The notes under the pieces are model-generated. The model had not been told where the DNA came from. It saw nothing but the letters and a program-made list of their open reading frames with translations, and ran no database searches. Shown piece by piece: positions 5,799 through 51,780 of a DNA stretch of 64,000 bases; the first letter of the stretch is position 1; every line of letters begins with the position of its first letter. The stretch is taken from sequence record PZ540767.1. One strand, given 5' to 3'. The translations under genes and the position numbers were made by a program. The DNA is from a phage.

Positions 5799-5875
5799 TG
5801 GCTGGAGCATCTGGATTCGAACCAGAGAATGTCGGTATCAAAGACCGATGCCTTAACCTACTTGGCTATGCTCCA
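5799..5875 (-). tRNA. tRNA-Gln (anticodon TTG)
   Basis: Cloverleaf folded by eye on reverse complement: acceptor TGGAGCA/TGCTCCA, anticodon loop CTTTGAT, T-loop TTCGAAT, encoded CCA. Confidence 0.7.
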
Positions 5876-5878
5876 ATT

Positions 5879-5968
5879 TGGTGGAAGGTGAAGGATTCGA
5901 ACCTTCGGGCGCATCTCTGCACCTCCTGATTTCAAGTCAGGTACAATCGGCCTCTCTGACAACCTTCC
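5879..5968 (-). tRNA. tRNA-Ser (anticodon TGA), long variable arm
   Basis: Acceptor GGAAGGT/ACCTTCC, anticodon stem CCTGA/TCAGG with loop CTTGAAA, long variable arm, T-loop TTCGAAT, encoded CCA. Confidence 0.7.
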
Positions 5969-5974
5969 TAAATT

Positions 5975-6061
5975 TGGTGGGGGAAGATGGAGTTGAACCA
6001 CCCGAGCTTCTTAGGCAACAGATTTACAGTCTGTCCCGCTACCTCTACGGTCTATTCCCCC
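5975..6061 (-). tRNA. tRNA-Tyr (anticodon GTA), long variable arm
   Basis: Acceptor GGGGGAA/TTCCCCC, anticodon stem ACAGA/TCTGT with loop CTGTAAA, T-loop TTCAACT, encoded CCA. Confidence 0.6.
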
Positions 6062-6066
6062 GAATT

Positions 6067-6143
6067 TGGTCACCACGTAAGGATTCGAACCTTAGACACC
6101 TTGCTCCCAAAGCAAGTGCTCTACCAGACTGAGCTACGCAGTG
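6067..6143 (-). tRNA. tRNA-Pro (anticodon TGG)
   Basis: D-arm TAGCTCAGTCTGGTAGAGC, anticodon stem CTTGC/GCAAG with loop TTTGGGA, T-loop TTCGAAT, encoded CCA. Confidence 0.7.
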
Positions 6144-6209
6144 TAATTAGCCCTCTACTGTCGCCATCCAGTAATCCAGTTGGAATCGAACCAACACAGA
6201 GGGGTTATT

Positions 6210-6284
6210 TGGCGATGGGACTGGGACTCGAACCCAGCTGTCATAGATTAACAGTCTACCGCTTCACCGTTTAGCTATCCCATC
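6210..6284 (-). tRNA. tRNA-Asn (anticodon GTT)
   Basis: Acceptor GATGGGA/TCCCATC, anticodon loop CTGTTAA, T-arm CTGGG-TTCGAGT-CCCAG, encoded CCA. Confidence 0.6.
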
Positions 6285-6579
6285 TTATTAATTAAGACAC
6301 TCTGTTATCTGCCGATCCGTGTGGCAGTACGGAGTGATAACACATTGAGATTAGGGTATGAACCTGTTCAATGTTGAGTGCCCTAATTAATAAGCCCCTG
6401 TAAAGTAGGGGCTACTCCGAGTTCGATAACCTGGTTCTGGTTCCAGGGTACTCCAGCTTTTAGACCTTTGTACATAACAGGACACTGCCTGTGATCTGAA
6501 ATACCTTGTTGGGGTATGGCAACAGAATCAACATCGCAACACGCTTCTTCTGTTCTAAATACACTCGTGAATGTATTTA

Positions 6580-6605
6580 AAAAAGAAGCCCTAGCGAACT
6601 AGGGC
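6580..6605 (-). terminator. rho-independent terminator after 6660..7280
   Basis: GCCCTAG-CGAA-CTAGGGC hairpin with T-tract on the minus strand (AAAAAGAA on plus). Confidence 0.55.
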
Positions 6606-6659
6606 TAATGCAGGAATCCAATCCGAATCTTCGCTGGATTTAGTTATGCCATAGCTAAC

Positions 6660-7280
6660 TTAGTTAGACAAGTGCATTTGATTAATGATTTTAGCAACAG
6701 ACTGATATTTAGCCGCTTGCTCAGGATCATAGTCAGGAAACAGACTGGAAAAGTCAGGCTCCTTGAAGGTGATCATGTTCTTGAGGAACTTACCTTCTGG
6801 GTACTCCTTACCTTCAATGACAGTGGTTTTAGCTACTTTGATGTAAGCACGAGGGTATTCACCTTCAATGGTGAGTTCATCATCACCAAAGCCCATAGCC
6901 CAGTAGTAAGACAGGGCATCTTCCACTTCATCTTCATGACGAATGAACTTAGTCATATTAGATTCATGAACCAGGTCATAGATCTTATCAGCATCGAAGC
7001 CAGCAACATGAGCCAGACCATAAGCTACGGTAAGAATGTCACCAATAGCATCAGCCAGTTGGATCATGTTTACTGGACCAACATCAGCATTCGTTAGGCG
7101 TTTCTGCAAATGTACCTGTACCATCATGTCAGGATTACTGGCTTCAATGGCTTCAACTGATTCTTCAAGGCACAGCTTTGCCTGTTTTCTGATAGCATTG
7201 ACATTAGGATTGGAGAGATCGCCTTTAGGGTTACCAAAAGCAATATTAAGTTCAGCTACTTTTTCGGCATTGGACTTCAT
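6660..7280 (-). CDS. MazG-like nucleoside triphosphate pyrophosphohydrolase
   Basis: 206 aa; EESVEAIEA (EExxE) and IGDILTVAYGLA motifs resemble MazG-type all-alpha NTP-PPase; AAGAGG RBS. Confidence 0.55.
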   Translation of the reverse strand: MKSNAEKVAELNIAFGNPKGDLSNPNVNAIRKQAKLCLEESVEAIEASNPDMMVQVHLQKRLTNADVGPVNMIQLADAIGDILTVAYGLAHVAGFDADKIYDLVHESNMTKFIRHEDEVEDALSYYWAMGFGDDELTIEGEYPRAYIKVAKTTVIEGKEYPEGKFLKNMITFKEPDFSSLFPDYDPEQAAKYQSVAKIINQMHLSN

Positions 7281-7336
7281 TTGTATGGCCTCTTTCTGGT
7301 TTAATACAACAAATTATTTACTAAGGTTAGAACACT

Positions 7337-9598
7337 ATGAACGATGAAGATCAGAGCGTAAGTGTAGCTTACCATGATCAACCTGTAGGCATCGAGACAG
7401 GATGGAAGAATCCACCTACTCTATCGATTCTTAAACAGGATCTGACCAATGCTACGCCTATTCATGATACTCAGACCGCTAAGATAGCGGAGTGGGAACG
7501 CTACCGTAAAGGTAAGACGACTACCCCTAAAGGTGAGGGGCAATCTAAAATTCAGCCTAAGCTTATTCGTAAGCAGGCTGAGTGGCGTTATGCTGCTTTG
7601 TCTGAGCCATTCTTATCTACCCCGGACTTATACAACATTAACCCAGTAACTTGGGAGGATGTTCCTGGTGCCAGACAAAACAGTTTAATTCTTAATAACC
7701 AATTCCAGACACAAATTGATCGTGTTGCTTTCATTGATGCCTACGTTCGTAGTGCAGTAGATGATGGTACGATCATTGTTCGTGTTGGCTGGGATTTTGA
7801 AGAAAGAGAAGTTCCTAAACAGGAGCCTGTATACTCTTTCTCAGTTGCTGCTGACATGATGGATATCTATCAAAAGATGGCACAGGTTGAGCAGGAAAAT
7901 CCTGTATACCTCTTAAATTATCCTCAGCAATTACAGGATGGTTACGAGATTCTCAAGAGTACAGGGATCCCTTATGCACTGACTCCTATTGGTGTAGCTA
8001 ACACTACCGAGATGAAGACAATTAAGAACTGTCCTACGGTAGAAGTCTGTGATTTAAATAACCTGTATGTAGACCCTTCTTGTAAGGGTGACCTGGATAA
8101 CGCTAAGTTTGTTATCTATTCTTTTGAGACGTCCCTTGCAGAACTTAAAGCAGATGGGCGATACAAGAACCTGGAGCAGATCAATGTCTCGAACAGTTCA
8201 CCTCTCACTGAGCAAAACTATGAAGCACCTAATGACCCCAACTTCCAGCCGGAGGGTAAACCTCGAAAAAGAATTGTTGCTTATGAGTATTGGGGATATT
8301 GGGATACTGATAATTCTGGTTTGTTACGCCCTATTGTAGCAACCTGGGTTAACGGTATATTAATCCGTCTGGAAGAGAACCCTTTCCCGGACAAGAAGAT
8401 TCCGTTTGTCTCAGTTCCTTACCTGCCTGTAAAAAACTCTATCTATGGCGAACCAGATGCAGAACTGCTAAAGGATAACCAGGATATCATCGGTGCAGTA
8501 ACCAGGGGTATGATTGACTTGCTTGGTAAGTCAGCTAACTCTCAAACTGGTTTTGCTAAGAACATGCTGGATGAAACTAACAAGCGTAAATTCCAACGTG
8601 GTGATGATTATGAGTTCAACCCTGGTACTGATCCCCGTGTAGGTATTCATACCCACACCTTCCCTGAGATCCCACAGTCTGCTCAGTTTATGCTTCAGCT
8701 TATGAACACTGATGCTGAATCATTGACTGGGGTTAAATCATTCTCTGGGGCAGAAGGTATTTCTGGTGCTGGTTTAGGTCAAACAGCTGCTGGTGTCCGT
8801 GGTGCATTGGATGCTGCTTCTAAACGTGAGCTTGGTATCCTTCGTCGTTTATCCAATGGCCTCATTAAGATTGGTCGTAAGATCATTGCAATGAATGCTG
8901 AGTTCCTGGATGAGGAAACTGTAGTACGTATTACTGAAGATGAGTTTGTGCCTATTCGTCGTGATGACTTACCAGGTAACTATGATCTTCGTCTTACCAT
9001 CTCTACAGCTGAGGATGATCAGGCTAAAGCTCAACAGCTTGCTTTCATGCTGCAAACCAGTGCTCAGACACTTGGCCCTGACTTCAGTAAGTTGTTCCTT
9101 GCTGAAATTGCACGCCTGAACAAGATGCCTGATATGGTTCGTAAGATTGAGCAGTATCAGCCTCAACCTGATCCGATGCAGCAGATGATGCAGCAGAAAC
9201 AACTTGAACTGCTTCAAGCTCAGATCAACCTTACTAATGCCCAAGCTATGGCTGAAGGTAGTAAAGGTCAGCTTAACCAAGTTAAGCAGGGTACTGAGAT
9301 GGCTAAAGCTGGTCAGATCCAATCCCAGACTGACAAGAATAGTCTCGACTTCTTGCAGACTCAGAATGGTGTCAAACATCAACAGGCTCTGGAGATGGAA
9401 CAAGTTAAGGGTGATACCTTACTTGCTGCCCAAGCTCTTAAACAGCAAGGCACTCTGGATCAGATTCAGGCACAGCATCAATCTGGTTTACTCCAGCAAC
9501 TTGCTAATACCAGGCTGAACCATAATAGCCAGCTTCAGTTGTTAAGAGCACAGAGGGATTTAAATCCTCCTACTCAAAGCACTGGTAATAACTCGTAA
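7337..9598 (+). CDS. portal protein (N4 gp59-like by size and synteny)
   Basis: 753 aa; first gene of the head module, two genes upstream of the capsid gene; Gln-rich C-terminus. Confidence 0.7.
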   Translation: MNDEDQSVSVAYHDQPVGIETGWKNPPTLSILKQDLTNATPIHDTQTAKIAEWERYRKGKTTTPKGEGQSKIQPKLIRKQAEWRYAALSEPFLSTPDLYNINPVTWEDVPGARQNSLILNNQFQTQIDRVAFIDAYVRSAVDDGTIIVRVGWDFEEREVPKQEPVYSFSVAADMMDIYQKMAQVEQENPVYLLNYPQQLQDGYEILKSTGIPYALTPIGVANTTEMKTIKNCPTVEVCDLNNLYVDPSCKGDLDNAKFVIYSFETSLAELKADGRYKNLEQINVSNSSPLTEQNYEAPNDPNFQPEGKPRKRIVAYEYWGYWDTDNSGLLRPIVATWVNGILIRLEENPFPDKKIPFVSVPYLPVKNSIYGEPDAELLKDNQDIIGAVTRGMIDLLGKSANSQTGFAKNMLDETNKRKFQRGDDYEFNPGTDPRVGIHTHTFPEIPQSAQFMLQLMNTDAESLTGVKSFSGAEGISGAGLGQTAAGVRGALDAASKRELGILRRLSNGLIKIGRKIIAMNAEFLDEETVVRITEDEFVPIRRDDLPGNYDLRLTISTAEDDQAKAQQLAFMLQTSAQTLGPDFSKLFLAEIARLNKMPDMVRKIEQYQPQPDPMQQMMQQKQLELLQAQINLTNAQAMAEGSKGQLNQVKQGTEMAKAGQIQSQTDKNSLDFLQTQNGVKHQQALEMEQVKGDTLLAAQALKQQGTLDQIQAQHQSGLLQQLANTRLNHNSQLQLLRAQRDLNPPTQSTGNNS

Positions 9599-9667
9599 TT
9601 TATTTAAAACTATAGGCAGGAAGGGCAATTTGTTGTATTGTCCTCCTGCTTCTTTCATGAGGTTTCT

Positions 9668-9982
9668 ATGAACATCAATAATCTCGACAACGATATAAAA
9701 AAGTATAAGCAACAGGTAGCACTGGGCGAAGCTTTAGAACGTCTGGAGGTTAATCCAGATTTTCGTATGCTCATTGAACTCAACTATCTGGGAACTCATG
9801 CTTTGGATCTGGTTTATTCACGTACTCGTGATATGACCCCAGATAATGAAATCGCTCGTAAGATTGATGCTGTAGCTACCTTTAAGCAATATCTGGATGA
9901 AGTAAAAGATAACCGGGCAACGGCTACTAAATCTCTCAGAGAAGCGGAGCAGACCCGAGATGAATTTTACGACGAGGACTAA
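9668..9982 (+). CDS. hypothetical head-module protein
   Basis: ATG at 9668 with GAGG RBS (ORF track begins at a TTG at 9638); between portal and scaffold candidate. Confidence 0.5.
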   Translation: MNINNLDNDIKKYKQQVALGEALERLEVNPDFRMLIELNYLGTHALDLVYSRTRDMTPDNEIARKIDAVATFKQYLDEVKDNRATATKSLREAEQTRDEFYDED

Positions 9983-9985
9983 CCC

Positions 9986-11146
9986 ATGAGTAATTCAAAT
10001 GAGCAACTAGATCCTAATGACATCTTCTCCATGTCTGAGGATGAATTAAGCAAATTTGATCCTGAACAAGCAGCAGCGGAAGCTGATGCCCTGGCTACAG
10101 CTGAAGAAACTCCTGAAGAACATCAGGAAGAAACCCCTGAGACTGAAGAAGAAACAGAGCAGCCAGAGGAAGAAACCACCACTGAAACTGATCCTGAGCA
10201 GCCGGAAGAAACTTCTGATAATCCAGAAGACACAGATCCTAAAGCACAGCCTCAGCAGACTGATCCTAACTCCAGCAACGAAAACGCACCGGACTACAAA
10301 GCGTTATACGAGCAAATTGTTGGTAAGCCTTTCAAGGCTAACGGTCGTGACCTCACCATTAAATCTGCCGATGAAGCTGTTAAGCTCATGCAGATGGGTG
10401 CCAACTACCATGAGAAGATGGCTGCTCTGAAACCAGTTCGCCGTGTTGCTCAGATGCTTCAGCAAGCCAATGCAATGGATGAATCCACTGTGGCTTTCCT
10501 TCTGGATCTTCATAATAAGAAACCAGAAGCAATTGCAAAGCTCGTCAAGGACAGCGGTATTGATCTGTATGAGTTCGATGTAGCTCAAGCAGATAACTAT
10601 CAAACCAGTTATCAAGCTCCAACTGATGTTCAGATGCAGCTTAATGACACCATTGAAACATTAGCTACTCAACCTGGTTTCCAGGAAATGTTCACTGGTA
10701 TTGCTCAAAGCTGGGATGATGTAAGTCAGAAATTCATTACTGAAAATCCAGGTATTCTGGGTGTGCTTCAGGAAATGAATGCTCGTGGTGAATATCAGCA
10801 GATCATGGATGAAGTTAGTCGTCGTCGGTTGTTCCAACCAGAACTGGCTGCACAACCAATGCTTCAGTTATTCCGTGATACTGAAGTACGTTTACGTGAA
10901 GCTGGCCTTTTAAAAGCTACTGCTACCCCTGAACAAATTCAGCAGGTACAGCAAGCTCAAGCTCCAGCTGTTGCTACTACTACCCAGCTTAAACAGGGCA
11001 CTGCCTCTCAAACTGCTCAAGCACGTCGTGCAGCAGCTGCACCTCGTCAAGCTCCACAAACCAGTCAACGTAAATTAACTCCTGAAGATATCTTTTCCCT
11101 TTCTCCAGAAGAATTTGCTAAGATTGACCCAAGCAAATTTAATTAA
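9986..11146 (+). CDS. putative scaffolding protein (highly acidic N-terminal region)
   Basis: 386 aa; long E/T/P-rich acidic stretch, helical remainder; directly upstream of capsid gene. Confidence 0.5.
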   Translation: MSNSNEQLDPNDIFSMSEDELSKFDPEQAAAEADALATAEETPEEHQEETPETEEETEQPEEETTTETDPEQPEETSDNPEDTDPKAQPQQTDPNSSNENAPDYKALYEQIVGKPFKANGRDLTIKSADEAVKLMQMGANYHEKMAALKPVRRVAQMLQQANAMDESTVAFLLDLHNKKPEAIAKLVKDSGIDLYEFDVAQADNYQTSYQAPTDVQMQLNDTIETLATQPGFQEMFTGIAQSWDDVSQKFITENPGILGVLQEMNARGEYQQIMDEVSRRRLFQPELAAQPMLQLFRDTEVRLREAGLLKATATPEQIQQVQQAQAPAVATTTQLKQGTASQTAQARRAAAAPRQAPQTSQRKLTPEDIFSLSPEEFAKIDPSKFN

Positions 11147-11160
11147 GAGGTTACTGACCT

Positions 11161-12333
11161 ATGGTTATGCAATATAAGGCTCCTGCCCAAGGTAAACCGT
11201 CTAGCATTGGCCCGCAGATTAATACTGCGTATTACCAGCGTAAGGCGATGGAAGATGCTCAGAAAGAGCAATACTTTACTCAGCTGGCTTCTGCTAAAGC
11301 TATTCCGTCTAACTACGGTAAAAAGCTGAAGATGTTCCATTACCTGCCACTGCTTGATGATCGTAACATTAACGATCAGGGTATCGATGCAACTGGTGCT
11401 AAAATCGCTAATGGTAACCTGTATGGTTCCAGCCGTGATATCGGTACTATCCCGGACAAATTCCCTGTACTGGGTGAAAACGGTGGTCGTGTTAACCGTG
11501 TTGGTACTACTCGTATTGAACTGGAAGGTTCTTTCGAGAAGTTCGGTTTCTTCATTGAGTACACCCGTGACTCTCTGAACTTCGATACCGATGCTGAACT
11601 ACTCCAGCATATCAACCGTGAGATCATGATTGCTGCATCTGACATGAACGAAGATGCTCTGCAAATCGACCTGATCAACAACGCTGGTACTATCGTCTAT
11701 GCAGGCGATGCCAACTCTCGTGCTGAACTGGGCCAGGATGACGTCCTGTCTTACAGTAACTTCATGAAGCTGGCTATGGCTCTGGATAAGGCTGATACGC
11801 CGAAGAAAACCACCATCCTGTCGGGTACTCGTAATATCGATACTCGTGTAGTCCCAGCTGCTCGCTATCTGTTCTGTGGCCCTGAACTGCGTCCTACCCT
11901 GGAAGCAATGAAGAACCTGCACGATCAGCCAGCATTCATCTCTGCTGAACACTACGCTGCTGGTACTACTCTGGCTAACGGTGAAGTCGGTTCAGTAGGT
12001 CAGTTCCGTCTGATCGAAAACCAGAAGATGATGAAGTGGTCTGGTGGCGGTGCTACCTTGACTGGTGGTGATGAGTCTGTGTATTACAACGATGGCGAGA
12101 AGTACGATGTATTCCCTCTGCTGTGCGTTGGTGATGACTCCTTCTCTACTATCACCTTCCAGACTTCTGGTAACCGTGTGAAGTTCGAGATCAACAGCCG
12201 CAAACCAGGTGAGAACATCGACCGTACTGACCCGTATGGCGAGACTGGCTTCATCTCTATGCGCTGGTTCTATGGCTTCATGGCTCAACGTCCAGAACGC
12301 ATTGGTCTGATCATGACCACTGCTAAGATGTAA
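11161..12333 (+). CDS. major capsid protein (N4 gp56-like by size and synteny)
   Basis: 390 aa; AGAGG RBS; followed by the strongest terminator in the window, as expected for a highly expressed capsid gene. Confidence 0.7.
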   Translation: MVMQYKAPAQGKPSSIGPQINTAYYQRKAMEDAQKEQYFTQLASAKAIPSNYGKKLKMFHYLPLLDDRNINDQGIDATGAKIANGNLYGSSRDIGTIPDKFPVLGENGGRVNRVGTTRIELEGSFEKFGFFIEYTRDSLNFDTDAELLQHINREIMIAASDMNEDALQIDLINNAGTIVYAGDANSRAELGQDDVLSYSNFMKLAMALDKADTPKKTTILSGTRNIDTRVVPAARYLFCGPELRPTLEAMKNLHDQPAFISAEHYAAGTTLANGEVGSVGQFRLIENQKMMKWSGGGATLTGGDESVYYNDGEKYDVFPLLCVGDDSFSTITFQTSGNRVKFEINSRKPGENIDRTDPYGETGFISMRWFYGFMAQRPERIGLIMTTAKM

Positions 12334-43627: not shown

Positions 43628-44403
43628 TGGGTAACTTCATTAAAATGGGCACTACGCTGAGTAATGCCAACCTGACTAAATTAACTGCTGATGCGACCAT
43701 CGATAACAGCACTGTAATGCTGATTGACTTTGGGCGTAAAACTTCAGTGCCTAACCAAACAGATCTGGTTAACGGTGATACTGTTGGCAACCTGGTTGAA
43801 GGTCAAGCAGGGGGTTCTGTAATTACCGGAACCAAATTCCTCTTCTCTGCTGCTGGTAAGTACATTACTAAGCAAGAAGGCGATATCTCAACCCGAATCC
43901 AGTTGCCTGATGTTTGTAAGGTTAAATCTACTGATCGTAGCTTCCAATTTAGCCTGTGGTTTACCCACATTGATAAAACGGATACTCAGGGTAGCCAAGC
44001 ATTGGGTGGTTATGCATCTAACTCCAGTAACCAGATGCCTTTTGCATTTTACTGGTATGATGGTCAATACAACTTGGGTTGTGCTGGTTCACGTACTGCA
44101 TTTGCTACTCCAGCGGCGGGAACAGTACACCAGTTGTCTGTTGCTTGTGACCTAGATCTGGGTATTCGTAAGTTCTATCACAACAATGAACTGATCCGTA
44201 CTGAGACTAATATTGGTCTTAGTGAAATGACTCAGCCTGCTGCTGGATCTCTGCCTTGGTTGTTCTACCTGGGTGGTGGTTTTAACAGCCGTGGTAACGT
44301 TAAGATGCACCGAGCATGGCTTGATATTAACGGTGGTGGTGCTAAGTTCGATGCAAAAGTAGCTGCGGACTACAACACCAACTACAGCCGATTTGCGGCT
44401 TAA
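43627..44403 (+). CDS. tail fibre-associated protein, possible receptor-binding jelly-roll domain
   Basis: ATG at 43627 overlaps the upstream stop (TAATG); Gly/aromatic-rich beta-type composition; followed by terminator. Confidence 0.45.
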   Translation: MGNFIKMGTTLSNANLTKLTADATIDNSTVMLIDFGRKTSVPNQTDLVNGDTVGNLVEGQAGGSVITGTKFLFSAAGKYITKQEGDISTRIQLPDVCKVKSTDRSFQFSLWFTHIDKTDTQGSQALGGYASNSSNQMPFAFYWYDGQYNLGCAGSRTAFATPAAGTVHQLSVACDLDLGIRKFYHNNELIRTETNIGLSEMTQPAAGSLPWLFYLGGGFNSRGNVKMHRAWLDINGGGAKFDAKVAADYNTNYSRFAA

Positions 44404-44420
44404 GTTAGTAACTTAGAACT

Positions 44421-44446
44421 AAGCCCCTTTATTAGGGGCTTTTTTA
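44421..44446 (+). terminator. rho-independent terminator
   Basis: AAGCCCCT-TTATT-AGGGGCTT hairpin followed by TTTTT. Confidence 0.8.
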
Positions 44447-44461
44447 TATATGAGGTTTATT

Positions 44462-44950
44462 ATGAAAATGTCGAATGAAGGACGCAAAGTAACTAAGTAT
44501 TTTGAGTCCCTTAAATTACGTGCTTACCCTGATCCTGCTACTGGGGGTAAACCATGGACTATTGGGTATGGTCATACTGGCCCAGATGTTTATCCTGGTT
44601 TGGCAATTTCGCAAACCAGAGCTGAACAGTTGCTTGATGCTGACCTTGCTAAGGCTGAAGCAGAAGTAAACAAGTATGGGCATAACCTTACCCAAGGTCA
44701 GTTCGATTGCCTTGTGGACATGGTATTTAATATGGGATCTGGTTTTATCCGGCCTGACAACATCAAGGGTGATTTTGATGACTTTGTTGCATCGGGTAAT
44801 ACTGCTGAGATGCGTAAACGTATTCCTCAATTCCGTATGGCCAACGGTAAAGTTATGAGAGGTTTAGTACGTCGTCGTGCTGCTAACCTTGCTACATGGG
44901 ACGGTAAGTCTGGTGATGAAGCAATTAAAATAGGGGTAAATGCTGCATGA
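44462..44950 (+). CDS. endolysin, GH24 T4-type lysozyme
   Basis: FESLKL...YPDPATGG...TIGYGHT catalytic E/D/T triad pattern and DCLVDMVFNMG motif; GAGG RBS before ATG 44462. Confidence 0.85.
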   Translation: MKMSNEGRKVTKYFESLKLRAYPDPATGGKPWTIGYGHTGPDVYPGLAISQTRAEQLLDADLAKAEAEVNKYGHNLTQGQFDCLVDMVFNMGSGFIRPDNIKGDFDDFVASGNTAEMRKRIPQFRMANGKVMRGLVRRRAANLATWDGKSGDEAIKIGVNAA

Positions 44951-45168
44951 AACTTGTAGAAAACTGGAAGTCAGCATGGAAGTGGTATTCTGTGCATATT
45001 ATGGTAGTGATCGTTGCACTTCCTGAAATCTGGAGTTACTTTCCACAGGAGTTTAAGGATTCATTACCTCCACATGCTCTTGCTGGATTAACAACTTTCC
45101 TGGGTATCTCAGCGATTGTTGCTCGTCTGGTTTCTCAGGAGAAACGTAATGATCAAGGATCTAATTAA
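44947..45168 (+). CDS. small membrane protein, candidate holin
   Basis: 73 aa; start overlaps endolysin stop (ATGA); two hydrophobic segments; inside lysis cassette. Confidence 0.45.
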   Translation: MKLVENWKSAWKWYSVHIMVVIVALPEIWSYFPQEFKDSLPPHALAGLTTFLGISAIVARLVSQEKRNDQGSN

Positions 45169-45658
45169 ACAGTATGCTGTTTTGTTAGGTTCTGTTCTGG
45201 CCCTGGCTTTACTTGCCGGGGCTTGTTACTTAACCTATGTTGTAACAGATAACCACTGGTCTGCTAAGTATTCTGGATTAGAACAGAAGTATAGTGATGC
45301 TTCTGCCAAAGCTACTCAGGAGGCCAGAGTCAAAGAATGGGAGTACCAAAACAATGTTGATGCAATCGCACAGCAAGGGGCTAAAGACCTCGCACAAGCT
45401 CGCTCTGACGCTGATATTGCCAATGCTTCTGTTAGCAGGTTGCAGCAACGGATCAACCGTTTACTTGCCAACACCAGCTCCGAAGATTCCGGCACTACCC
45501 AAAGAGGCAAGACAGCCAGAGAAGCCCTCGATCTGCTTGCCAACGTGCTCGAAAAATCTCTCGAACGAAACAGACAGTTGGCTGACTACGCCGACAAAGC
45601 CAGTAGTGCTGGATTCACCTGTGAAAAAGCCTACGACGCCATCCAATCAGGCAAGTAA
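45149..45658 (+). CDS. i-spanin (Rz-like)
   Basis: AGGAG RBS before ATG 45149; N-terminal TM helix then periplasmic coiled-coil region; an o-spanin-like ORF overlaps in another frame. Confidence 0.6.
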   Translation: MIKDLIKQYAVLLGSVLALALLAGACYLTYVVTDNHWSAKYSGLEQKYSDASAKATQEARVKEWEYQNNVDAIAQQGAKDLAQARSDADIANASVSRLQQRINRLLANTSSEDSGTTQRGKTAREALDLLANVLEKSLERNRQLADYADKASSAGFTCEKAYDAIQSGK

Positions 45659-45683
45659 TACTAAGTTGGTTTATTTCGTATAA
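45354..45683 (+). CDS. o-spanin (Rz1-like outer-membrane lipoprotein), out of frame within and past i-spanin
   Basis: Signal peptide ending in lipobox LLAGC, Pro-rich mature region; start is my best guess among in-frame ATGs. Confidence 0.5.
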   Translation: MLMQSHSKGLKTSHKLALTLILPMLLLAGCSNGSTVYLPTPAPKIPALPKEARQPEKPSICLPTCSKNLSNETDSWLTTPTKPVVLDSPVKKPTTPSNQASNTKLVYFV

Positions 45684-45734
45684 ACCAGTAGAATGATGTA
45701 CATTAACTAGACTTTTCATGAAGAGGAAACACCT

Positions 45735-46178
45735 ATGTCTAAAGTCCCCTCTATCGGTGCTGGTGTTATCACTACCGATGATGTGCTGGCACAAGGCTAT
45801 GATTTTATCCCCCTGAAAATGGGTGGTATGGCTAAAGTGCCTGCTGATGTAGCCGCTGCTCAATCTAAAGACGTCACTGGTGCTGCTTATACTAAACCAG
45901 CAGCTCTGAGTCTGACTACTGATCTGACTGCTACTAAATCTGTTGCTGAAGGTGCTGCCCTGGAACTGAAAGTAGTTCCTGCTGGCGGTGTTGCACCTTA
46001 CAGCGTTACCTGGTTTAAAGGTGGCTCTGCTATCCAGACTCTGGGTAGTTCTACCCTTAACCTGGGTGCAGCTACTCTGGATATGGCTGGCTCTTACCAT
46101 GCTGAAGTCTACGACGCAGCTGGTAAAGAGATTCAGTCTACTACCTGCGTAGTGACTGTCACTGAAGCTGGTGGTTAA
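45735..46178 (+). CDS. Ig-like domain capsid decoration protein (N4 gp17-like)
   Basis: 147 aa; GAGGAAA RBS; beta-sandwich-type pattern YSVTWFKGG...GSYHAEVYD...CVVTV; followed by terminator. Confidence 0.55.
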   Translation: MSKVPSIGAGVITTDDVLAQGYDFIPLKMGGMAKVPADVAAAQSKDVTGAAYTKPAALSLTTDLTATKSVAEGAALELKVVPAGGVAPYSVTWFKGGSAIQTLGSSTLNLGAATLDMAGSYHAEVYDAAGKEIQSTTCVVTVTEAGG

Positions 46179-46196
46179 TAGCTACCAGCATGAATA

Positions 46197-46220
46197 AGCC
46201 CCCATTTGGGGGCTTTTTTA
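46197..46220. terminator. rho-independent terminator, likely bidirectional
   Basis: AGCCCCC-ATTT-GGGGGCT hairpin followed by TTTTTT; lies between convergent plus and minus genes. Confidence 0.8.
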
Positions 46221-46406
46221 TTACCCTGTTAAACCTAAAAGGTTATCAGGATCCTTTACCGCCGTATCTTTGATAAAGGCAAAGGGAACGATGATCTTCC
46301 CGAAATGGAAGGCATTAGCACTTTCTACAATTTTATTTGCTTTGAAAGTGAGTGCACCATTATTTCTGAAAAAGATAGTTATCTCAGCTGGAATTTTGTC
46401 TGTCAT
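46221..46406 (-). CDS. small hypothetical protein (61 aa)
   Basis: Translationally coupled (ATGA overlap) to the upstream small ORF. Confidence 0.35.
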   Translation of the reverse strand: MTDKIPAEITIFFRNNGALTFKANKIVESANAFHFGKIIVPFAFIKDTAVKDPDNLLGLTG

Positions 46407-46633
46407 AGAGAGGCAATCCTGTGAGTTGCAGCCCTGATACGACTAATACGCTTAGTGTGTATTGTCTCATTTCTGTCGTAGCCTCGGGCATTTCTACGAA
46501 TGGTTTCACACTCTGCCCTATAGGCAGGAGTCTGAGTTTGTTTTTGTAGGATCTTAGAACATTTAGAGTGAACTCGTTTATTTCGTAAGATCCCACAGAT
46601 TGGACATACGTTAAATGTTGGACTGAAAATCAT
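46403..46633 (-). CDS. small basic Cys-containing protein, possible zinc ribbon
   Basis: 76 aa; CPICG near N-terminus, Arg/Lys-rich; start overlaps methyltransferase stop (ATGA); competing frame 46384..46596 judged less likely. Confidence 0.4.
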   Translation of the reverse strand: MIFSPTFNVCPICGILRNKRVHSKCSKILQKQTQTPAYRAECETIRRNARGYDRNETIHTKRISRIRAATHRIASL

Positions 46634-47436
46634 GGTTTTAGTACAGCAATGATATCTTTGGCTACTTCTCGTGATTCAGCTTTAGCTGAGATGCTACGAG
46701 TTGCAGTTAATGGGTGAATGTCAAAACCAGCTTTGGTATAGAGATCAACTAAACGTGGAGCACTACTATTTGTAATGACCACTCTTACACCTCTGGCTTT
46801 AAGCTCAAGAGCTTTACCTACCAGACGTTTCTGATCTCCCCACTTAAAGCTGGTGCCACTATAGCTTGTGAACCCCTGATGTTTAGGCATAGGCTCATAA
46901 GGTGGATCACAAAATACAACATTACCTTCCTCAGCAGTGTTCATAAATAACATGAAGTCTGTATTTGCTACTGTTGGTTTCAAACCAGAATTGATGAAAT
47001 CTCTGAGTTCCTGTTCAGGGAAGTAAGGTTGTTCTTTCTGGCCCCAAGGAACATTGAATTCCTTTTTCTTGTTGTAACGACACAGGCCATTAAAGCCAGT
47101 ACGATTGAGCACCAGGAAGAACACGGCTTTAGACAGGGAATTGAACTTACCACTGTTAAAGTTAGCCCTGAGCTGATTGTAGCGAGCTTCTGAGTTACAC
47201 CACTCATGCAGTTTCTTTGCCTGGTTCAATACATAATCACCATTATGGATGAGGGCTAAGTAGAGCTGGCATAGATCAGGATTTACATCATTGATAGCCA
47301 CCTTATCGAAACCAGCATTCATAAATACTGATCCTGCACCCACAAAAGGTTCAATGAGACGATTACCAACTAAGAATGGTTGGATTTGAGGAAGCTGGCG
47401 ATACTTGCCACCTGCCCACTTAAGCCAAGGTTTCAT
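46630..47436 (-). CDS. dam: Dam-like N6-adenine DNA methyltransferase
   Basis: 268 aa; N-terminal WAGGKYRQL, FVGAGSVF AdoMet-binding motif and catalytic DPPY motif. Confidence 0.85.
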   Translation of the reverse strand: MKPWLKWAGGKYRQLPQIQPFLVGNRLIEPFVGAGSVFMNAGFDKVAINDVNPDLCQLYLALIHNGDYVLNQAKKLHEWCNSEARYNQLRANFNSGKFNSLSKAVFFLVLNRTGFNGLCRYNKKKEFNVPWGQKEQPYFPEQELRDFINSGLKPTVANTDFMLFMNTAEEGNVVFCDPPYEPMPKHQGFTSYSGTSFKWGDQKRLVGKALELKARGVRVVITNSSAPRLVDLYTKAGFDIHPLTATRSISAKAESREVAKDIIAVLKP

Positions 47437-47545
47437 TTGAGCACCAATGCTAACAGGTTCATAACGAGTTCATTGGCTTGATAGGCCAAGAACCAGAAGG
47501 CACCCAGCAGTATTGCCAGTATGCACCACACTTTTCCGCGAAAGC

Positions 47546-47884
47546 TCATAAAATTCCTATCCTCTTTTTGAGTAAAATTTCAGCAGTTAAAGGGACTGAT
47601 ACTTGAACTTTGATGGGTAATACAACATCATCATAGATATCCCAGGCATCCCCTTCAGTAAGTGCTATCGTCCCTTCCCCTAACTCATTTAATACAATGA
47701 CTTGATCATGAGGGCAGTACCAGCTATCACTACGTTCTCGGAACATAATTACTGTTTTTTCTACTTCAATGAATTGGTCATTGAATATTGTAAAAGTGTC
47801 GTCTACCTCTACTCCTACTTCCCTGTTATTTAGCAGGATGATAATACCTGTAATAGTAGTTAGATCCATTGCAGTAATCTGCAT
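47546..47884 (-). CDS. hypothetical protein
   Basis: ATG at 47884 with GGAGGGG RBS (ORF track begins at a TTG at 47896). Confidence 0.45.
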   Translation of the reverse strand: MQITAMDLTTITGIIILLNNREVGVEVDDTFTIFNDQFIEVEKTVIMFRERSDSWYCPHDQVIVLNELGEGTIALTEGDAWDIYDDVVLPIKVQVSVPLTAEILLKKRIGIL

Positions 47885-47896
47885 GATCCCCTCCAA

Positions 47897-47920
47897 TGAA
47901 AAAGCCCTCCGAAGAGGGCT
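47897..47920 (-). terminator. rho-independent terminator
   Basis: AGCCCTC-CGAA-GAGGGCT hairpin with T-tract on the minus strand. Confidence 0.55.
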
Positions 47921-47925
47921 TGAGG

Positions 47926-48249
47926 TTACTTAGGTGAACCTGTGTAGGACGTCTTGCCTTCAAACAGCCTTTCTACATACTGGAAGATCTTAATCCCCAG
48001 ATAGGCAGATGCTGAAGTGAATATGGGTTGCGTAATCCCAGTAGGCAACTGACTTGCCACTACAGGGTAGGCATCCCATGCCAAATAGCCTGCGAGTAGA
48101 GCTGCTGACATTTCTGTAGCTGCTGCAACGAAGGTTACCTGACCATAGCGTAGGATTCGTCTCCCAACGGAGATTGCACCACTGACAGTACTAATCAGGA
48201 GAGCACCCAGTAGCTGAACATAAAAGTTCTGTTGCTGATCTGGGGTCAT
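47926..48249 (-). CDS. membrane protein with three predicted TM segments
   Basis: ATG at 48249 with GGAG RBS; hydrophobic segments throughout. Confidence 0.45.
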   Translation of the reverse strand: MTPDQQQNFYVQLLGALLISTVSGAISVGRRILRYGQVTFVAAATEMSAALLAGYLAWDAYPVVASQLPTGITQPIFTSASAYLGIKIFQYVERLFEGKTSYTGSPK

Positions 48250-48294
48250 GACACTACTCCAATTCACTTACATGAAATGGATTGTAACGTTAAT

Positions 48295-48669
48295 TTACTT
48301 TGAATGCTCAGAATTATCTGACCATAAACTAGCAAATTTAGCGTTGATCGCTTTCATGAACCCTTTCTGGTTATGGTTACGAAGACGTAGACGACTAAAG
48401 TTAATCTCATGAAGACCTTTAGTAATCCCTTTAAGGTTCTCAACAAAGATAGCCTTGTCAGGTTCTTCTTGTACCAATGTGACTTTCTGGTTTAGAAAGT
48501 ACAACTGACCATTAAGCAACGTCCAGAAACCAGTGCATTGATACACACTCTCAGCCACTGGAGCACCCATAATTATCTGGCTTGCCAGTGATGTGATGCT
48601 CTCAGGGCATTCAAGGTATAACCCTACCTCTGGTTTAAGGTACTTGAGTTCAATGTTAAGTTTTACCAT
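48295..48669 (-). CDS. hypothetical protein (124 aa)
   Basis: GAGGA RBS; start overlaps stop of the HAD-like gene. Confidence 0.45.
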   Translation of the reverse strand: MVKLNIELKYLKPEVGLYLECPESITSLASQIIMGAPVAESVYQCTGFWTLLNGQLYFLNQKVTLVQEEPDKAIFVENLKGITKGLHEINFSRLRLRNHNQKGFMKAINAKFASLWSDNSEHSK

Positions 48670-49163
48670 GGATCCTCTACGCTAAACTTGGGCACCAAGA
48701 TAGCGCTGACGTTAGGCAGGTATTTTCTGACTTTATTAATGACAGATTTGTCATCATCGATCAGGAAAATTTCTACTTTATCCATCGTAGTCATGGCACC
48801 CATGCAAAACATTGGGATCAGTGACAGCAATGCTTCCAGTTTGAAGTTAGCTGCACTTCCACCCAGATTTTCACTGCGGTTATGGAGTAAGTCGAAGATA
48901 AGATTACCTTCTTCTTTGAAACGATCGTTTGTTTCTTTATCCAGAACTTTGCTACGGTTAGACAGACTAATCAGAACTGAATCCTGATTAATCAGCGATT
49001 TAACCATTTCAATACCTTTATGGTTCAAAGGCTCTAAGATCCAGGCTTTATGCCAATCAAGCCACTCGTGCTGGTTTGATGGGTCTTTGGGGATGTACTG
49101 CTTTCGAAACTCACTGTTACCGTTTAGAACTCCGTCCAGGTCACAGAAGATCAGTCTACGCAT
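48663..49163 (-). CDS. HAD-superfamily phosphatase, possibly deoxyribonucleotidase-like
   Basis: N-terminal IFCDLDGVLNG matches HAD motif I (DxDGV); AGAGG RBS; start overlaps DNA polymerase stop. Confidence 0.55.
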   Translation of the reverse strand: MRRLIFCDLDGVLNGNSEFRKQYIPKDPSNQHEWLDWHKAWILEPLNHKGIEMVKSLINQDSVLISLSNRSKVLDKETNDRFKEEGNLIFDLLHNRSENLGGSAANFKLEALLSLIPMFCMGAMTTMDKVEIFLIDDDKSVINKVRKYLPNVSAILVPKFSVEDPW

Positions 49164-51780
49164 GTGATGCCTCTTTTTGTTTTAGCTTATCCAGTGCTTT
49201 AGCCACAAAGGGCTTTATATCATCTTCTGCGAGGTTGTTAGGCAGAGTGATAGCATTGGCCCAGTTGGGATAATACAAGTCCAGTTCAGCTGGCAGAGGG
49301 ATTCGTGGATCAGCAATTTCAGGTAAACCTTTCCATGCCATACACTCGATCAAGTTGTCATTAACAAACTTGATTACCCTTACGTTGTTACGCATCAGCA
49401 CATAGATAGCATCATGAATCAGAGCCACAGGCAGAATGTCATAACGAAACTCTGAAGCCCACACACGCTCCATGAACTCATTAGCAGCACGGTTGGTTAA
49501 CAGACCATAAGACTGACCTGAGATAGCATTGCCTAATGTACGTCCCTCAGCTTCAGCTTCACGTAGCGTCTTGGTGGTATCCAGGATCGAACGTGCAAGG
49601 AGCGGGGTACGAATACGCAGCCCAAAGGCAGCAGTGGCATAGCCGTCATTACAGGCTTGTCTGATGCGTTCTTTAACCCATTCACCCGATACAGCATAGA
49701 GTGCATGGAAACTGGCTTCAGTTTCTTTGGCTTCCTCTTCAGAGAAACCACAGTTCTTAACCAGGGTAATCCAGGTGCCTTGATACTGAAGTGCAAAGCT
49801 TGGTGCTTTAGACTTATTACGTAGCGGGTAGTATGGGTGATCCTTTTCAGCTATCTGGTTTACAGAAGCTGGATCATTAATGTCGATATCCGGCATTAAC
49901 TTGGCACCCCAATAGCCCACAGCACGTAACGAGTGACCGTCGAAGCCATCCGTGAACACTTTGACCTTGTTAGGATCTTGTGTTAACAGTGCATTGATAC
50001 GATCTTCCAGAGCATTAAAGTCTGCTCCACCGAATACCCAACCATCGGGTGCAGCAAAGCATTTCTTGATGAGTTTACCGAAGGTACTCCCAGAAGGTAG
50101 CTGCTGTAGGTTTGGATCCGATGAGCTTAATCGCCCTGATACTGTACCACCCAGGTTGAAGTTACCATGAAGGTAAGATCTTCCATTACCTTTGTTGAAG
50201 GCATTTTTAAAGGTGGGTATAAAACTGGTGAGGATCTTCTCACCGTCTCCAAACTCACGAAGAGTTTTGAGTACTATCTTTCCACTTTCAGTAGCATGGT
50301 TTTCCAGCTTCTTAAGTGTTGCACCAGCCGTAGATGGCTGCTTGGTTTTGGTTCTGTCCAGCACAGGAAGTTTCATCACTTCATAAAGTAAAGTGATCAG
50401 ATGGTTGCCACTATTAGGGTTAAACTTAAGGTGACTGAAAGCACTGAGAGGGTACTGTTTAGTCTTCAGAGTGGCATTCTTAGCTTCCATTGCTCTGGTT
50501 TGAATAAGCAATTCTGCTTTCTGAACCAGGGGGTGTGCATACAAAGTTTTAAGACTTCGATCATGCAATTCCTGTAATTGCTTCTCTGCCTTATCCACCA
50601 TAGCGGGGATCATAGGCATACCAGTAAGTTCAATCTGGGTGATTGTCTTCTGGCTTGGCATCATCAGGTATTTATACAGCTCAAGCTGCATATCACGAAC
50701 CATAACAGGGTAATACTTGTTATAGACGTACCAGGTAGACATGGTATCGATGATGTTATAGCGGAGCAGTTCAGGCAGGGGGATCACCAGGATATTGGTA
50801 ATATCAGACATAGCCCAGTTACCTGCAAATTCATGAGCAAGCTGTTTCAAGCTCAGTTCATTTTTTGCAGTATTGTTCAGTGCGAGATAAGCAATGATGC
50901 GAGTATCATCACAATCTCGATAGAGACAATCCAGGCCACGCAGTAAACCTTCATTATCCAGGGGATCTTTCATCCAGAGGTTATAGATCAGGACTTTGGT
51001 ATCAAAGTTAGCCCTGTGGAATTTCAGGTTACCCTTATATTCCTCAAAGAACTTACGCAGCTTAATACGAAAGCCTTCGTTAAACCAACGGTAGTTTTCC
51101 CCTTCACTTACTGCAAGGTCACAGGTAAATGCTATACCGCCTGTATTATCAGGGCTGAAAGCAATAGTACCAATGCCAGCAGTAAAGATATCAAGACTGA
51201 AAGTTTCGATATCACAGGTCAGCTTAGGGTAAGACATTAACTTGGCAAATGCCTCGTCAATTTCCTTTTCAGTCTGGGGATACAAAGCCCATTTCAGGAT
51301 ATCAGCACCCAAAGCTTTATAGCTGTTGGTTACCTTACCTGCTAAGGCTTGCACAGACATTTCCAGTTTATCTGCCTGGTTTGGGTTATAGAGTAGAGCC
51401 TGATAGTTAATACCTACCAGTATTTCAATATCCTCGTACCCCGGTATTGAACAGGGAGTGCCATAACCGATCATTGCATCGATCTTGGCATTCTTAACCA
51501 GACACTTAAAGTAAGTGGAGTCAGCACAGTAAATGTACTTAACACCCATCTTCTTAAGCTGAGGGAGAATTTTAGCCAGATAATCCTTACAGAACTTGGC
51601 TGGAGCTTTACCATTGGATTCATACTCTAGCGAAAACGCCAGAATGTTCTCTTTGGCATAGCCAGCTTCGACTAAAGGATTAACGTAGTGACGCTCAATC
51701 TGATCCTGATAGAAAGCAGACTCTTTGATGAGTATTGCTGTCTCGAATTCAGGTTTATGAGCGAACATGATATGACGCAT
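49156..51780 (-). CDS. DNA polymerase, family A
   Basis: 874 aa; exonuclease-like CDIETFSLD near N-terminal half; polymerase-type FGGADFNALEDR, KAPSFALQYQG and HDAIY in C-terminal half. Confidence 0.85.
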   Translation of the reverse strand: MRHIMFAHKPEFETAILIKESAFYQDQIERHYVNPLVEAGYAKENILAFSLEYESNGKAPAKFCKDYLAKILPQLKKMGVKYIYCADSTYFKCLVKNAKIDAMIGYGTPCSIPGYEDIEILVGINYQALLYNPNQADKLEMSVQALAGKVTNSYKALGADILKWALYPQTEKEIDEAFAKLMSYPKLTCDIETFSLDIFTAGIGTIAFSPDNTGGIAFTCDLAVSEGENYRWFNEGFRIKLRKFFEEYKGNLKFHRANFDTKVLIYNLWMKDPLDNEGLLRGLDCLYRDCDDTRIIAYLALNNTAKNELSLKQLAHEFAGNWAMSDITNILVIPLPELLRYNIIDTMSTWYVYNKYYPVMVRDMQLELYKYLMMPSQKTITQIELTGMPMIPAMVDKAEKQLQELHDRSLKTLYAHPLVQKAELLIQTRAMEAKNATLKTKQYPLSAFSHLKFNPNSGNHLITLLYEVMKLPVLDRTKTKQPSTAGATLKKLENHATESGKIVLKTLREFGDGEKILTSFIPTFKNAFNKGNGRSYLHGNFNLGGTVSGRLSSSDPNLQQLPSGSTFGKLIKKCFAAPDGWVFGGADFNALEDRINALLTQDPNKVKVFTDGFDGHSLRAVGYWGAKLMPDIDINDPASVNQIAEKDHPYYPLRNKSKAPSFALQYQGTWITLVKNCGFSEEEAKETEASFHALYAVSGEWVKERIRQACNDGYATAAFGLRIRTPLLARSILDTTKTLREAEAEGRTLGNAISGQSYGLLTNRAANEFMERVWASEFRYDILPVALIHDAIYVLMRNNVRVIKFVNDNLIECMAWKGLPEIADPRIPLPAELDLYYPNWANAITLPNNLAEDDIKPFVAKALDKLKQKEASHA

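Follow-up and report, generated by a model that had tools for sequence, protein, structure and literature searches.

A Dam methyltransferase and two small coupled genes closing the replication operon of an N4-like phage of Klebsiella

The window, by which we mean the whole 64,000-nucleotide stretch of DNA that was analysed (sequence record PZ540767.1), belongs to an Efbeekayvirus-type Klebsiella phage of the N4-like group (Schitoviridae), and 13 GenBank records match it at 85–94% DNA identity. The locus described here lies at the distal end of this phage's replication operon, a middle-gene operon on the minus strand. Five genes form a coupled chain on the minus strand. The first, orf112 (47546–47884, 112 amino acids), is followed by orf38 (47433–47549), which encodes a hydrophobic peptide of 38 amino acids, and by dam (46630–47436), which encodes an EcoDam-type N6-adenine methyltransferase of 268 amino acids. 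The last two are orf76 (46403–46633), encoding a basic Cys/His protein of 76 amino acids that belongs to phrog_6887, and orf61 (46221–46406), encoding a protein of 61 amino acids with a predicted small β-barrel fold. The same genes are found in 13 GenBank phages and the synteny of the locus is conserved among relatives. An earlier, sequence-only reading had described the last three ORFs, all of which are present on the minus strand, as a Dam-like methyltransferase with two coupled small ORFs; both of these junctions are indeed ATGA overlaps, but the chain is longer and includes orf112 and orf38. The finding as a whole is ordinary. Our overall interpretation, which we hold with reasonable confidence, is that of an operon-end locus carrying an orphan, probably GATC-specific Dam, an independent zinc-knuckle protein (orf76) and a lineage-specific protein (orf61).

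Stop and start codons overlap as ATGA at each of the four junctions of the chain. These overlaps are kept at all four junctions across ten related loci, the sole exception being an ATAA at the orf76/orf61 junction of phage FBKp27, and this conservation bears out the proposal that both small ORFs are translationally coupled to dam. Shine–Dalgarno sequences precede orf112 (GGAGG) and orf38 (AAGAGGA), while none is found ahead of dam, orf76 or orf61. Since only the first two genes have a recognisable Shine–Dalgarno sequence, the other three are most likely translated by termination–reinitiation.

The upstream edge of the five-gene unit is formed by a terminator-like GC hairpin (AAGCCCTCTTCGGAGGGCTT, followed by TTTCATT; 47902–47921, minus strand) directly upstream of orf112, and the records of FBKp27 and Halo_KS_7 have an annotated terminator at the corresponding position. 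As the space between this hairpin and orf112 is too short for a promoter of its own, expression of the unit probably depends on read-through, and the hairpin could restrict transcription of all five genes. A second GC-rich hairpin (AAGCCCCCATTTGGGGGCTT, 46196–46215) bounds the unit on the other side, where the convergent late (plus-strand) and replication (minus-strand) transcription units meet. As an intrinsic terminator it is good on the plus strand, while its T-tail is weak for the minus strand; it is conserved in all loci compared, and the FBKp27 and Halo_KS_7 records label it a bidirectional terminator. Within the five-gene unit we detected neither an internal terminator nor a credible promoter. 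A scan for σ70 promoters returned fewer sites than shuffled controls (5 versus 7.4) and we do not claim an internal promoter. An Rfam scan of 44000–50000 gave nothing in the locus.

The first two genes can be described briefly. The orf112 product is acidic (pI about 4.2) and has no Pfam or PHROG match. The ORF as mechanically called reaches a TTG at 47896, while its homologs in relatives are 112 amino acids long, and gp88 of Erwinia phage MIF8 is a weak homolog. The orf38 peptide is hydrophobic (GRAVY 1.28) and probably embedded in the membrane; its gene is called in relatives and has a pN/pS of 0.20 in its own frame versus 0.65 and 1.8 in the other frames.

The assignment of the methyltransferase agrees with the sequence-only reading, which had recognised a DPPY catalytic motif and an FxGxG AdoMet site. 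Both are intact (FVGAG at residues 31–35 and DPPY at residues 177–180), and the order, with FxGxG N-terminal to DPPY, is that of the α group; the enzyme is of the D12 class. The protein matches Pfam PF02086 with E = 3.3e-47 (161.8 bits, cutoff 22) and the TIGR00571 'dam' model with 219.7 bits (cutoff 114.85). It aligns over its full length with the EcoDam structures (PDB entries 2G1P and 4GOL; phage residues 3–268 against 6–270, E = 4e-50). Matches of this strength go far beyond coincidence. The score against NF008152, which describes chromosomal Dam, is 217.7 bits and lies below the equivalog cutoff of 441 bits. Judged by these profiles, the phage enzyme is a member of the family and not an orthologue of the housekeeping Dam of the host. 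It also differs from EcoDam in being encoded by a phage-borne gene within a translationally coupled chain of small genes. Near-identical GenBank phages already have this gene annotated as Dam.

Six of the seven residues with which EcoDam contacts GATC, whose roles have been described (PMC4417163), are kept in the alignment. Lys9, Asn120, Leu122, Arg124 and Pro134 of EcoDam are identical in the phage protein (Lys6, Asn116, Leu118, Arg120 and Pro130), and Tyr119 is conserved as Phe115. The seventh, Tyr138, which takes part in recognition of the first base pair, is replaced by Lys134. Because of this substitution and the NF008152 score below the cutoff, specificity for the first base is not guaranteed. 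The enzyme is nevertheless probably GATC-specific, and methylation of GATC is the most likely outcome given the conserved contact residues together with digest data on an orthologue: in the Pectobacterium phages CB1, CB3 and CB4, which carry an approximately 60% identical Dam, ClaI digests indicate that the virion DNA is adenine-methylated (PMC6027278). No nuclease domain was detected by Pfam, PHROGs or NCBIfam in the neighbouring products of orf112, orf38, orf76 and orf61. As an adjacent cognate restriction endonuclease was not found, we regard the enzyme as an orphan methyltransferase and not as part of a type II restriction–modification system. In its α-group order and in having no partner nuclease it resembles EcoDam and the orphan phage Dams of the TIGR00571/PF02086 subfamily.

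A close comparison outside the genus is with the Cbunavirus phages CB1, CB3, CB4, Nepra, phiA41 and Kc283 (Schitoviridae), whose Dams are also 268 amino acids long and about 60% identical. There, too, Dam closes the DNA-polymerase operon and faces Hoc-like and lysis genes, so that it occupies the same syntenic slot, and it is followed by small ORFs that include a member of the same CCHC family as orf76. The Cbunavirus loci differ in that the CCHC gene stands two genes further downstream and is unannotated, in the lack of a clear orf61 homolog and, in some members, in the insertion of an HNH endonuclease immediately before Dam.

As the sequence-only reading noted, the product of orf76 contains a CPICG motif and is very basic (pI 10.9, with 16 Lys and Arg versus four Asp and Glu). 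The same reading called it zinc-ribbon-like, and here we differ. A zinc ribbon consists of two CxxC knuckles, each on a β-hairpin, and a three-stranded sheet. The orf76 protein has a single CxxC and the second ligand pair, His22-x2-Cys25, starts a helix (from residue 23 in the model); in the Pfam zinc-ribbon models only one family member each was matched, with E-values of 0.012 or worse. The arrangement is instead a C-x2-C-x8-H-x2-C knuckle plus basic helix, with long helices following the knuckle. Cys10, Cys13, His22, Cys25 and Ser26 are invariant in 19 diverse members of a family whose identities fall to about 30%, while the fifth cysteine, Cys42, is not conserved. Invariance of the four ligands over such divergence makes it very probable that the protein binds zinc. 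The structure model is of moderate confidence (pLDDT 73, from a shallow alignment), and fold searches with the models of orf76 and orf61 gave nothing specific.

The family is well defined. The orf76 protein matches the phrog_6887 profile over residues 1–71 with E = 9.6e-13 and carries the C-x2-C-x8-H-x2-C-S signature, and 138 phage records contain a member, mostly in the company of early genes. Examples are phi32_122 of phiEco32, orf89 ('gp9.1') of Bp4, gp10 of Erwinia phage Frozen and gp86 of MIF8. Like orf76, they are 67–78 amino acids long and start with M-I-x-S, and they share the pattern C-x2-C-G-x-x-R-x-K-R-x-H-x-K-C-S-[RK]-x-L-Q-K followed by a charged helical tail. They differ from orf76 in context: in phiEco32, Bp4 and Frozen, though not in MIF8, the gene lies in the early region within a block of host-takeover genes, and Dam may be present or absent. 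The right-end cluster of phiEco32 belongs to the early class (PMC8948821). A search of the early region of phage N4 (bases 1–12000) gave no CCHC homolog, there are no paralogs of orf76 or orf61 within the window, and a literature search found no study of phi32_122 or gp9.1. The phiEco32 protein phi32_124 (299 amino acids), encoded two genes upstream of the CCHC gene, was considered as a hidden Dam and set aside, as it has no methyltransferase domain. In our reading orf76 is a small protein in its own right, with a zinc knuckle and a basic helix, and its most likely binding partner is nucleic acid or a host protein.

The second small gene, orf61, is found only in the 13 Klebsiella phages of the Efbeekayvirus lineage and in metagenomic relatives. 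Its product is modelled with moderate confidence (pLDDT 74, from a shallow alignment) as a small β-barrel with a C-terminal tail that scores below 50 and is probably disordered. Small β-barrels of the SH3-like and Sm-like type, for example Hfq, may be the closest known comparison for the predicted fold. The Sm/Hfq fold comprises an N-terminal helix and a five-stranded bent sheet with the Sm1 and Sm2 motifs. The C-terminal peptide of orf61, DPDN[LV]LGLTG, is invariant across the loci compared, and no second copy of this motif exists in the window. The protein would be a lineage-specific small β-barrel whose flexible C-terminal peptide most likely docks on a partner protein. Two isolates, Halo_KS_7 and FBKp27, have a disrupted copy, and the gene is dispensable for growth in culture. 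Escherichia coli Pol IV binds the β-clamp through a C-terminal peptide, QLVLGL, which the orf61 tail may resemble in a loose sense. We think it improbable that the tail is a short docking motif capturing a host factor or, alternatively, that the CCHC protein has been recruited as a Dam modulator within the clade; if the docking reading were true, a new host-replication or repair effector would be encoded next to Dam. CB4 gp057, which also has 61 amino acids and directly follows Dam in Cbunavirus, was examined as an orf61 homolog and rejected as unproven (hhalign probability 13%, nothing by BLASTP, HMM E = 0.08–0.28).

Several features of the small ORFs might suggest that one or both are chance frames in a 3′ untranslated region, their conservation reflecting a nucleotide-level element near the terminator. 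In FBKp27 the orf61 start is ATA in place of ATG and the annotators put a predicted promoter there, orf61 of Halo_KS_7 has a 101-nucleotide frame-shifting deletion, the synonymous rate pS falls to 0.22 over the final 13 codons of orf61 from 0.55 in the rest of the gene, and both ORFs do without a Shine–Dalgarno sequence. Against this stands the pattern of substitution. The in-frame pN/pS is 0.34 for orf76 and 0.25 for orf61, versus 1.0–2.6 in the other two forward frames, and over all coupled genes that were tested the ratio runs from 0.10 (dam) to 0.34 in frame and never falls below 0.65 in the wrong frames. Even the orf61 tail has accumulated 17 synonymous and two nonsynonymous changes (pN/pS 0.04 over the last 13 codons). 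Lengths are kept exactly in homologs down to 61% (orf76) and 44% (orf61) identity, and the orf76 family retains its metal ligands throughout its many phage records. A non-coding origin is therefore extremely improbable; since purifying selection is confined to their own frames, orf76 and orf61 are, by this comparative evidence, real genes, as had been assumed. Whether orf76 also works together with Dam, as the sequence-only reading implied, is a separate matter. The zinc protein might control the translation, activity or target choice of Dam, in analogy to Com of phage Mu, a small zinc-finger translational activator of the DNA-modification gene mom, or to the controller proteins of restriction–modification systems. 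The dam and orf76 genes overlap directly by ATGA in all Efbeekayvirus loci, they are neighbours also in MIF8, whose Dam is only 54% identical, and in the Cbunavirus phages CB4 and Kc283 a CCHC gene follows Dam two genes further on; the orf76 protein is, moreover, basic enough that it could bind RNA or DNA. Like Com it would be a small basic zinc-binding protein whose gene overlaps a DNA-modification gene in one operon. However, orf76 lies downstream of dam whereas com lies upstream of mom, its predicted ligands are CCHC and not the four cysteines of Com, nothing in its sequence resembles Com, and its family occurs in genomes without Dam; a Com-like translational activator was rejected on these grounds of gene order, ligands and distribution. 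The CCHC gene is present in phiEco32 and Bp4, in neither of which tblastn detects a Dam homolog (best E = 2.3 and 0.59, respectively), and in Frozen the early-block CCHC gene is 16 kb away from Dam. Shared descent of closely related genera fully explains why the two genes stand close together in Efbeekayvirus, MIF8 and Cbunavirus, which are related lineages. A functional pair within the clade is thus unlikely and a dedicated partnership is not supported; in our reading orf76 would adjoin Dam by descent within the clade and would not be its obligate partner.

Several roles are conceivable for the phage Dam. Evasion of restriction, as originally proposed, is plausible, but it does not follow simply from the presence of the gene. 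K. pneumoniae itself methylates GATC, in 14 of the 14 strains examined (PMC9684165). The phage enzyme therefore repeats what the host already does, and a resident nuclease that cuts unmethylated GATC is impossible in these strains. Nor is GATC avoided by the phage: the 64 kb contain 404 sites, with an observed/expected ratio of 1.13, and the count is about 1.65 times the roughly 244 sites predicted from mononucleotide frequencies. The enzyme might therefore serve mainly to manage the phage's own DNA, either by keeping GATC methylated against host MutH and SeqA or by controlling packaging or late transcription, and not to evade restriction. There is precedent in phage P1, where packaging is regulated by Dam. 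For CB1, CB3 and CB4, packaging, transcription and anti-restriction were given as alternative roles (PMC6027278). On the other hand, phages shift between strains and genera, an anti-restriction role is the usual reading of orphan Dam genes, and the Dam-less N4-like phage Bp4 replicates well in Dam+ E. coli, which means that the function is not essential to such a replication strategy. We consider management of the phage DNA as the main role to be a possible but less probable explanation. As for the selective benefit over the host Dam, we infer that the phage enzyme probably keeps the fast-replicating, GATC-rich phage DNA fully methylated, more than the host Dam manages. Full methylation would guard the DNA against enzymes cutting GATC that lacks methylation, in hosts that possess them, and against host processes directed at hemimethylated or unmethylated sites. 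No methylome or transcriptome of an Efbeekayvirus phage came up in our literature search.

The practical value of these results is modest. This group of phages very probably carries GATC-methylated DNA, which bears on the choice of restriction enzymes, on the interpretation of long-read methylation signals and on sensitivity to methylation-dependent defences in therapeutic use. The CCHC family of phrog_6887, which is common to two unrelated podovirus groups (N4-like and phiEco32-like), is well defined, widely conserved and completely unstudied, and would be a reasonable target for host-takeover screens. With regard to annotation, the Cbunavirus CCHC gene could be added to its records, several GenBank records leave out orf61 and orf38 although both are real genes, and in the FBKp27 record the annotated start of Dam is placed too far upstream.

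At the core of the locus is an ordinary, already annotated orphan Dam methyltransferase of an N4-like phage. The three minus-strand ORFs claimed by the sequence-only reading agree exactly with the ORF listing: dam (46630..47436, 268 aa), orf76 (46403..46633, 76 aa) and orf61 (46221..46406, 61 aa). A 3-kb locus query of the phage collection yielded matches of 85-94% identity, all of them in 13 Klebsiella phage records; the curated records among these are N4-like podoviruses of the Schitoviridae, genus Efbeekayvirus. In these relatives dam is annotated as 'methyl-directed repair DNA adenine methylase' or 'DNA methyltransferase', orf76 is hypothetical and orf61 is present in some records and left out of others. 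The locus forms the distal end of a minus-strand operon beginning with DNA polymerase and faces convergent late genes for a Hoc-like decoration protein, spanin, holin and endolysin. The nearest of these (45735..46178, plus strand, 147 aa), named Hoc-like head decoration protein in relatives, shows weak matches to Pfam Ig_3 and Ig_2, and its stop codon lies ~20 nt short of the shared terminator hairpin.

The coupled unit is larger than the three genes originally described. The dam/orf76 and orf76/orf61 couplings hold, both as ATGA overlaps, with each stop codon sharing bases with the start of the gene after it, and the chain extends upstream of dam: the hydrophobic orf38 (47433..47549, minus strand, 38 aa) overlaps the dam start, and the acidic orf112 (47546..47884, minus strand, 112 aa) overlaps that of orf38. 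ATGA is found at all four junctions in the window and in about nine to ten related loci, the sole exception among the latter being the orf76/orf61 junction of FBKp27, which reads ATAA. A recognisable Shine-Dalgarno sequence precedes orf112 (GGAGG) and orf38 (AAGAGGA) only; none was recognised ahead of dam, orf76 or orf61, a distribution that fits translation of these three genes by termination-reinitiation. A terminator-like hairpin (47902-47921, minus strand) immediately precedes orf112, and a strong hairpin closes the unit (46196-46215). Since a promoter scan returned fewer sigma-70-like sites than shuffled sequence, no internal promoter is claimed, and together with the hairpin boundaries this makes the predicted co-transcription of all five genes likely.

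Both small downstream ORFs are genuine genes. Among 5.8 billion proteins, the homolog clusters of orf76 (n = 7) and orf61 (n = 11) contain proteins of equal length throughout, with identity down to 61%, and the contigs encoding them hold the order orf38, dam, orf76, orf61. In an operon alignment of nine loci, with substitutions counted relative to the window, pN/pS in the gene's own frame is 0.10 for dam, 0.20 for orf38, 0.34 for orf76 and 0.25 for orf61, against 2.8-2.9, 0.65-1.8, 1.2-1.6 and 1.0-2.6, respectively, in the other two forward frames. These substitution patterns indicate purifying selection at the protein level in all four.

The AdoMet and catalytic motifs attributed to the 268-aa protein are in place (FVGAG, residues 31-35; DPPY, residues 177-180). 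It matches the entire profile of Pfam PF02086 (D12-class N6-adenine methyltransferase; E = 3.3e-47), scores 219.7 bits against NCBIfam TIGR00571 'dam' (cutoff 114.85) and aligns over residues 3-268 with solved E. coli Dam (EcoDam) structures (E = 4e-50). In EcoDam, R124 reaches the fourth base pair at its guanine; L122 and P134 make contacts described as the same as in the cognate GATC complex, and touch the second position in non-cognate ones; Y119 inserts itself between the inner A-T pairs, N120 hydrogen bonds to bases, and the first base pair is recognised by K9 and Y138 (PMC4417163). The aligned residues in the phage protein are R120, L118, P130, F115, N116, K6 and K134. With the Tyr-to-Phe exchange counted as conservative, six of the seven contacts are retained, which makes GATC the likely target, its first base being less certain.

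The nearest relatives of Dam outside Klebsiella phages occupy the same syntenic site in other N4-like phages at 54-60% identity (Pectobacterium CB1/CB3/CB4, Nepra, phiA41 and Possum, Kosakonia Kc283 and Erwinia MIF8). ClaI digestion patterns are reported to indicate adenine methylation of CB1/CB3/CB4 virion DNA (PMC6027278). In CB4 (locus L014, 1992-2504) and close relatives, an HNH endonuclease gene is inserted directly upstream of Dam and overlaps it; this gene is absent from the corresponding site in Kc283 (locus L015, 2462-2501), consistent with a mobile, homing-type insertion.

No nuclease domain was found in the neighbours of dam, which makes it an orphan methyltransferase. The window shows no avoidance of GATC (404 sites; Markov O/E 1.13, a slight enrichment), and CTAG is strongly depleted (32 observed versus 149 expected; O/E 0.22). 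GCGC, TATA and GGCC are moderately depleted. GATC was methylated in all 14 K. pneumoniae strains examined (PMC9684165), so the phage enzyme duplicates a host activity. Restriction evasion, the role originally proposed, is thus reasonable but not straightforward; presumably Dam tops up the methylation of fast-replicating DNA, or counts in other hosts or in DNA management.

The CPICG motif and very basic character (pI 10.9) ascribed to orf76 are borne out, whereas the 'zinc-ribbon-like' label is not. A profile run against 1.84 billion representatives returned 17 additional small proteins. In the 19-sequence alignment C10, C13, H22, C25 and S26 are invariant and Q30 nearly so, giving the signature C-x2-C-x8-H-x2-C-S-[RK]-x-L-Q-K; C42, a further cysteine of orf76, is not conserved. 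In the AlphaFold model (pLDDT 73) a short hairpin carries C10 and C13, H22 and C25 sit where a first helix begins, and a long helix comes next, so that the predicted fold is a treble-clef-like knuckle plus helix. The protein matches phrog_6887 (function unassigned; E = 9.6e-13), and Pfam, NCBIfam, PDB-sequence and fold searches returned nothing informative.

By tblastn this CCHC family occurs in 138 phage records, covering N4-like phages of Klebsiella, Escherichia, Shigella and Erwinia and also unrelated phiEco32-like podoviruses, and its position relative to Dam differs between phages. A clade-specific link of orf76 to Dam would agree with the arrangement in Klebsiella Efbeekayvirus (directly after Dam, ATGA overlap), in Erwinia MIF8 (gp86, directly after Dam) and in the Cbunavirus phages CB4 and Kc283 (an ATGA-coupled 76-aa ORF two genes after Dam, E about 1e-10). 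The wider distribution speaks against a dedicated role with Dam: in Erwinia Frozen the gene (gp10) sits in an early block, 16 kb from a Dam of about 38% identity, and the early-block genes of Bp4 (orf89, 'gp9.1') and phiEco32 (phi32_122) belong to phages without a Dam (best tblastn E = 0.59 and 2.3, respectively). The right-end cluster of phiEco32 is an experimentally defined early class thought to serve host takeover (PMC8948821). We therefore consider such a link improbable; the simplest reading is that the Dam-orf76 neighbourhood is synteny inherited within one clade and that orf76 has its own function. Nucleic-acid or host-protein binding is the most likely prediction, judged by the protein's charge and by the early genes that surround it in other phages.

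orf61 was found in the 13 Klebsiella phages and metagenomic relatives only, HS106 and pKP-BM327-1.1 carrying a version just 42-44% identical. It is dispensable in culture, as it is disrupted in two isolates: in FBKp27 (locus L001, about 3707) the start codon is ATA, not ATG, and in Halo_KS_7 (locus L009, about 1420-1495) a 101-nt internal deletion shifts the frame. The Halo_KS_7 genome is 58.7 kb long, its relatives about 76 kb. The C-terminal tail DPDN[LV]LGLTG is unchanged even in the 44%-identical version. Across the last 13 codons, 17 synonymous and 2 non-synonymous substitutions (pN/pS 0.04) indicate that the peptide itself is constrained and not just the terminator-adjacent DNA. The motif occurs in no other ORF of the window, and we read the tail as a putative docking peptide for a partner. 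It may loosely resemble the clamp-binding peptide of Pol IV.

At the other end of the unit, orf112 is strongly acidic (pI about 4.2) and has no family match; an acidic protein beside a methyltransferase could be a putative anti-restriction DNA mimic. Its C-terminus, VPLTAEILLKKRIGIL, is invariant, which may be explained by overlap of the same stretch with the orf38 ribosome-binding site. MIF8 gp88, directly upstream of Dam in that Erwinia phage, is a weak homolog (E = 3e-5). orf112 is missing from a metagenomic locus (L007) and also from Halo_KS_7.

The value of the locus lies chiefly in annotation corrections and in two tractable small-protein questions, orf76 being a member of a broad, unstudied CCHC family and orf61 a lineage-restricted protein with a conserved tail. 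In CB4 (L014) and Kc283 (L015), an unannotated 76-aa ORF beginning MSLSNCPICGKLRAHYSHKGCSRKLQ (3762-3992, plus strand, in each) lies between two annotated genes and looks like a gene missed in both RefSeq records. The FBKp27 Dam CDS (L001, 3931-4830, minus strand) has a 5' extension of 93 nt relative to its annotation in other phages; this added stretch overlaps the conserved orf38, itself absent from the FBKp27 record, and the upstream start is probably mis-annotated. In OY979417.1 (Klebsiella phage vB_Kpn_K17alpha62), the Dam/orf76/orf61 region (8182-11181) bears the labels 'RNA polymerase', 'N4-like RNA polymerase' and 'toxin', which disagree with the sequences and suggest that annotation was shifted or transferred wrongly. 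Finally, a 113-aa membrane protein within the replication operon (47926..48267, minus strand) matches the holin family phrog_6854 (E = 1.3e-28), apart from the lysis cassette of endolysin, holin and spanin (44450..45658, plus strand).
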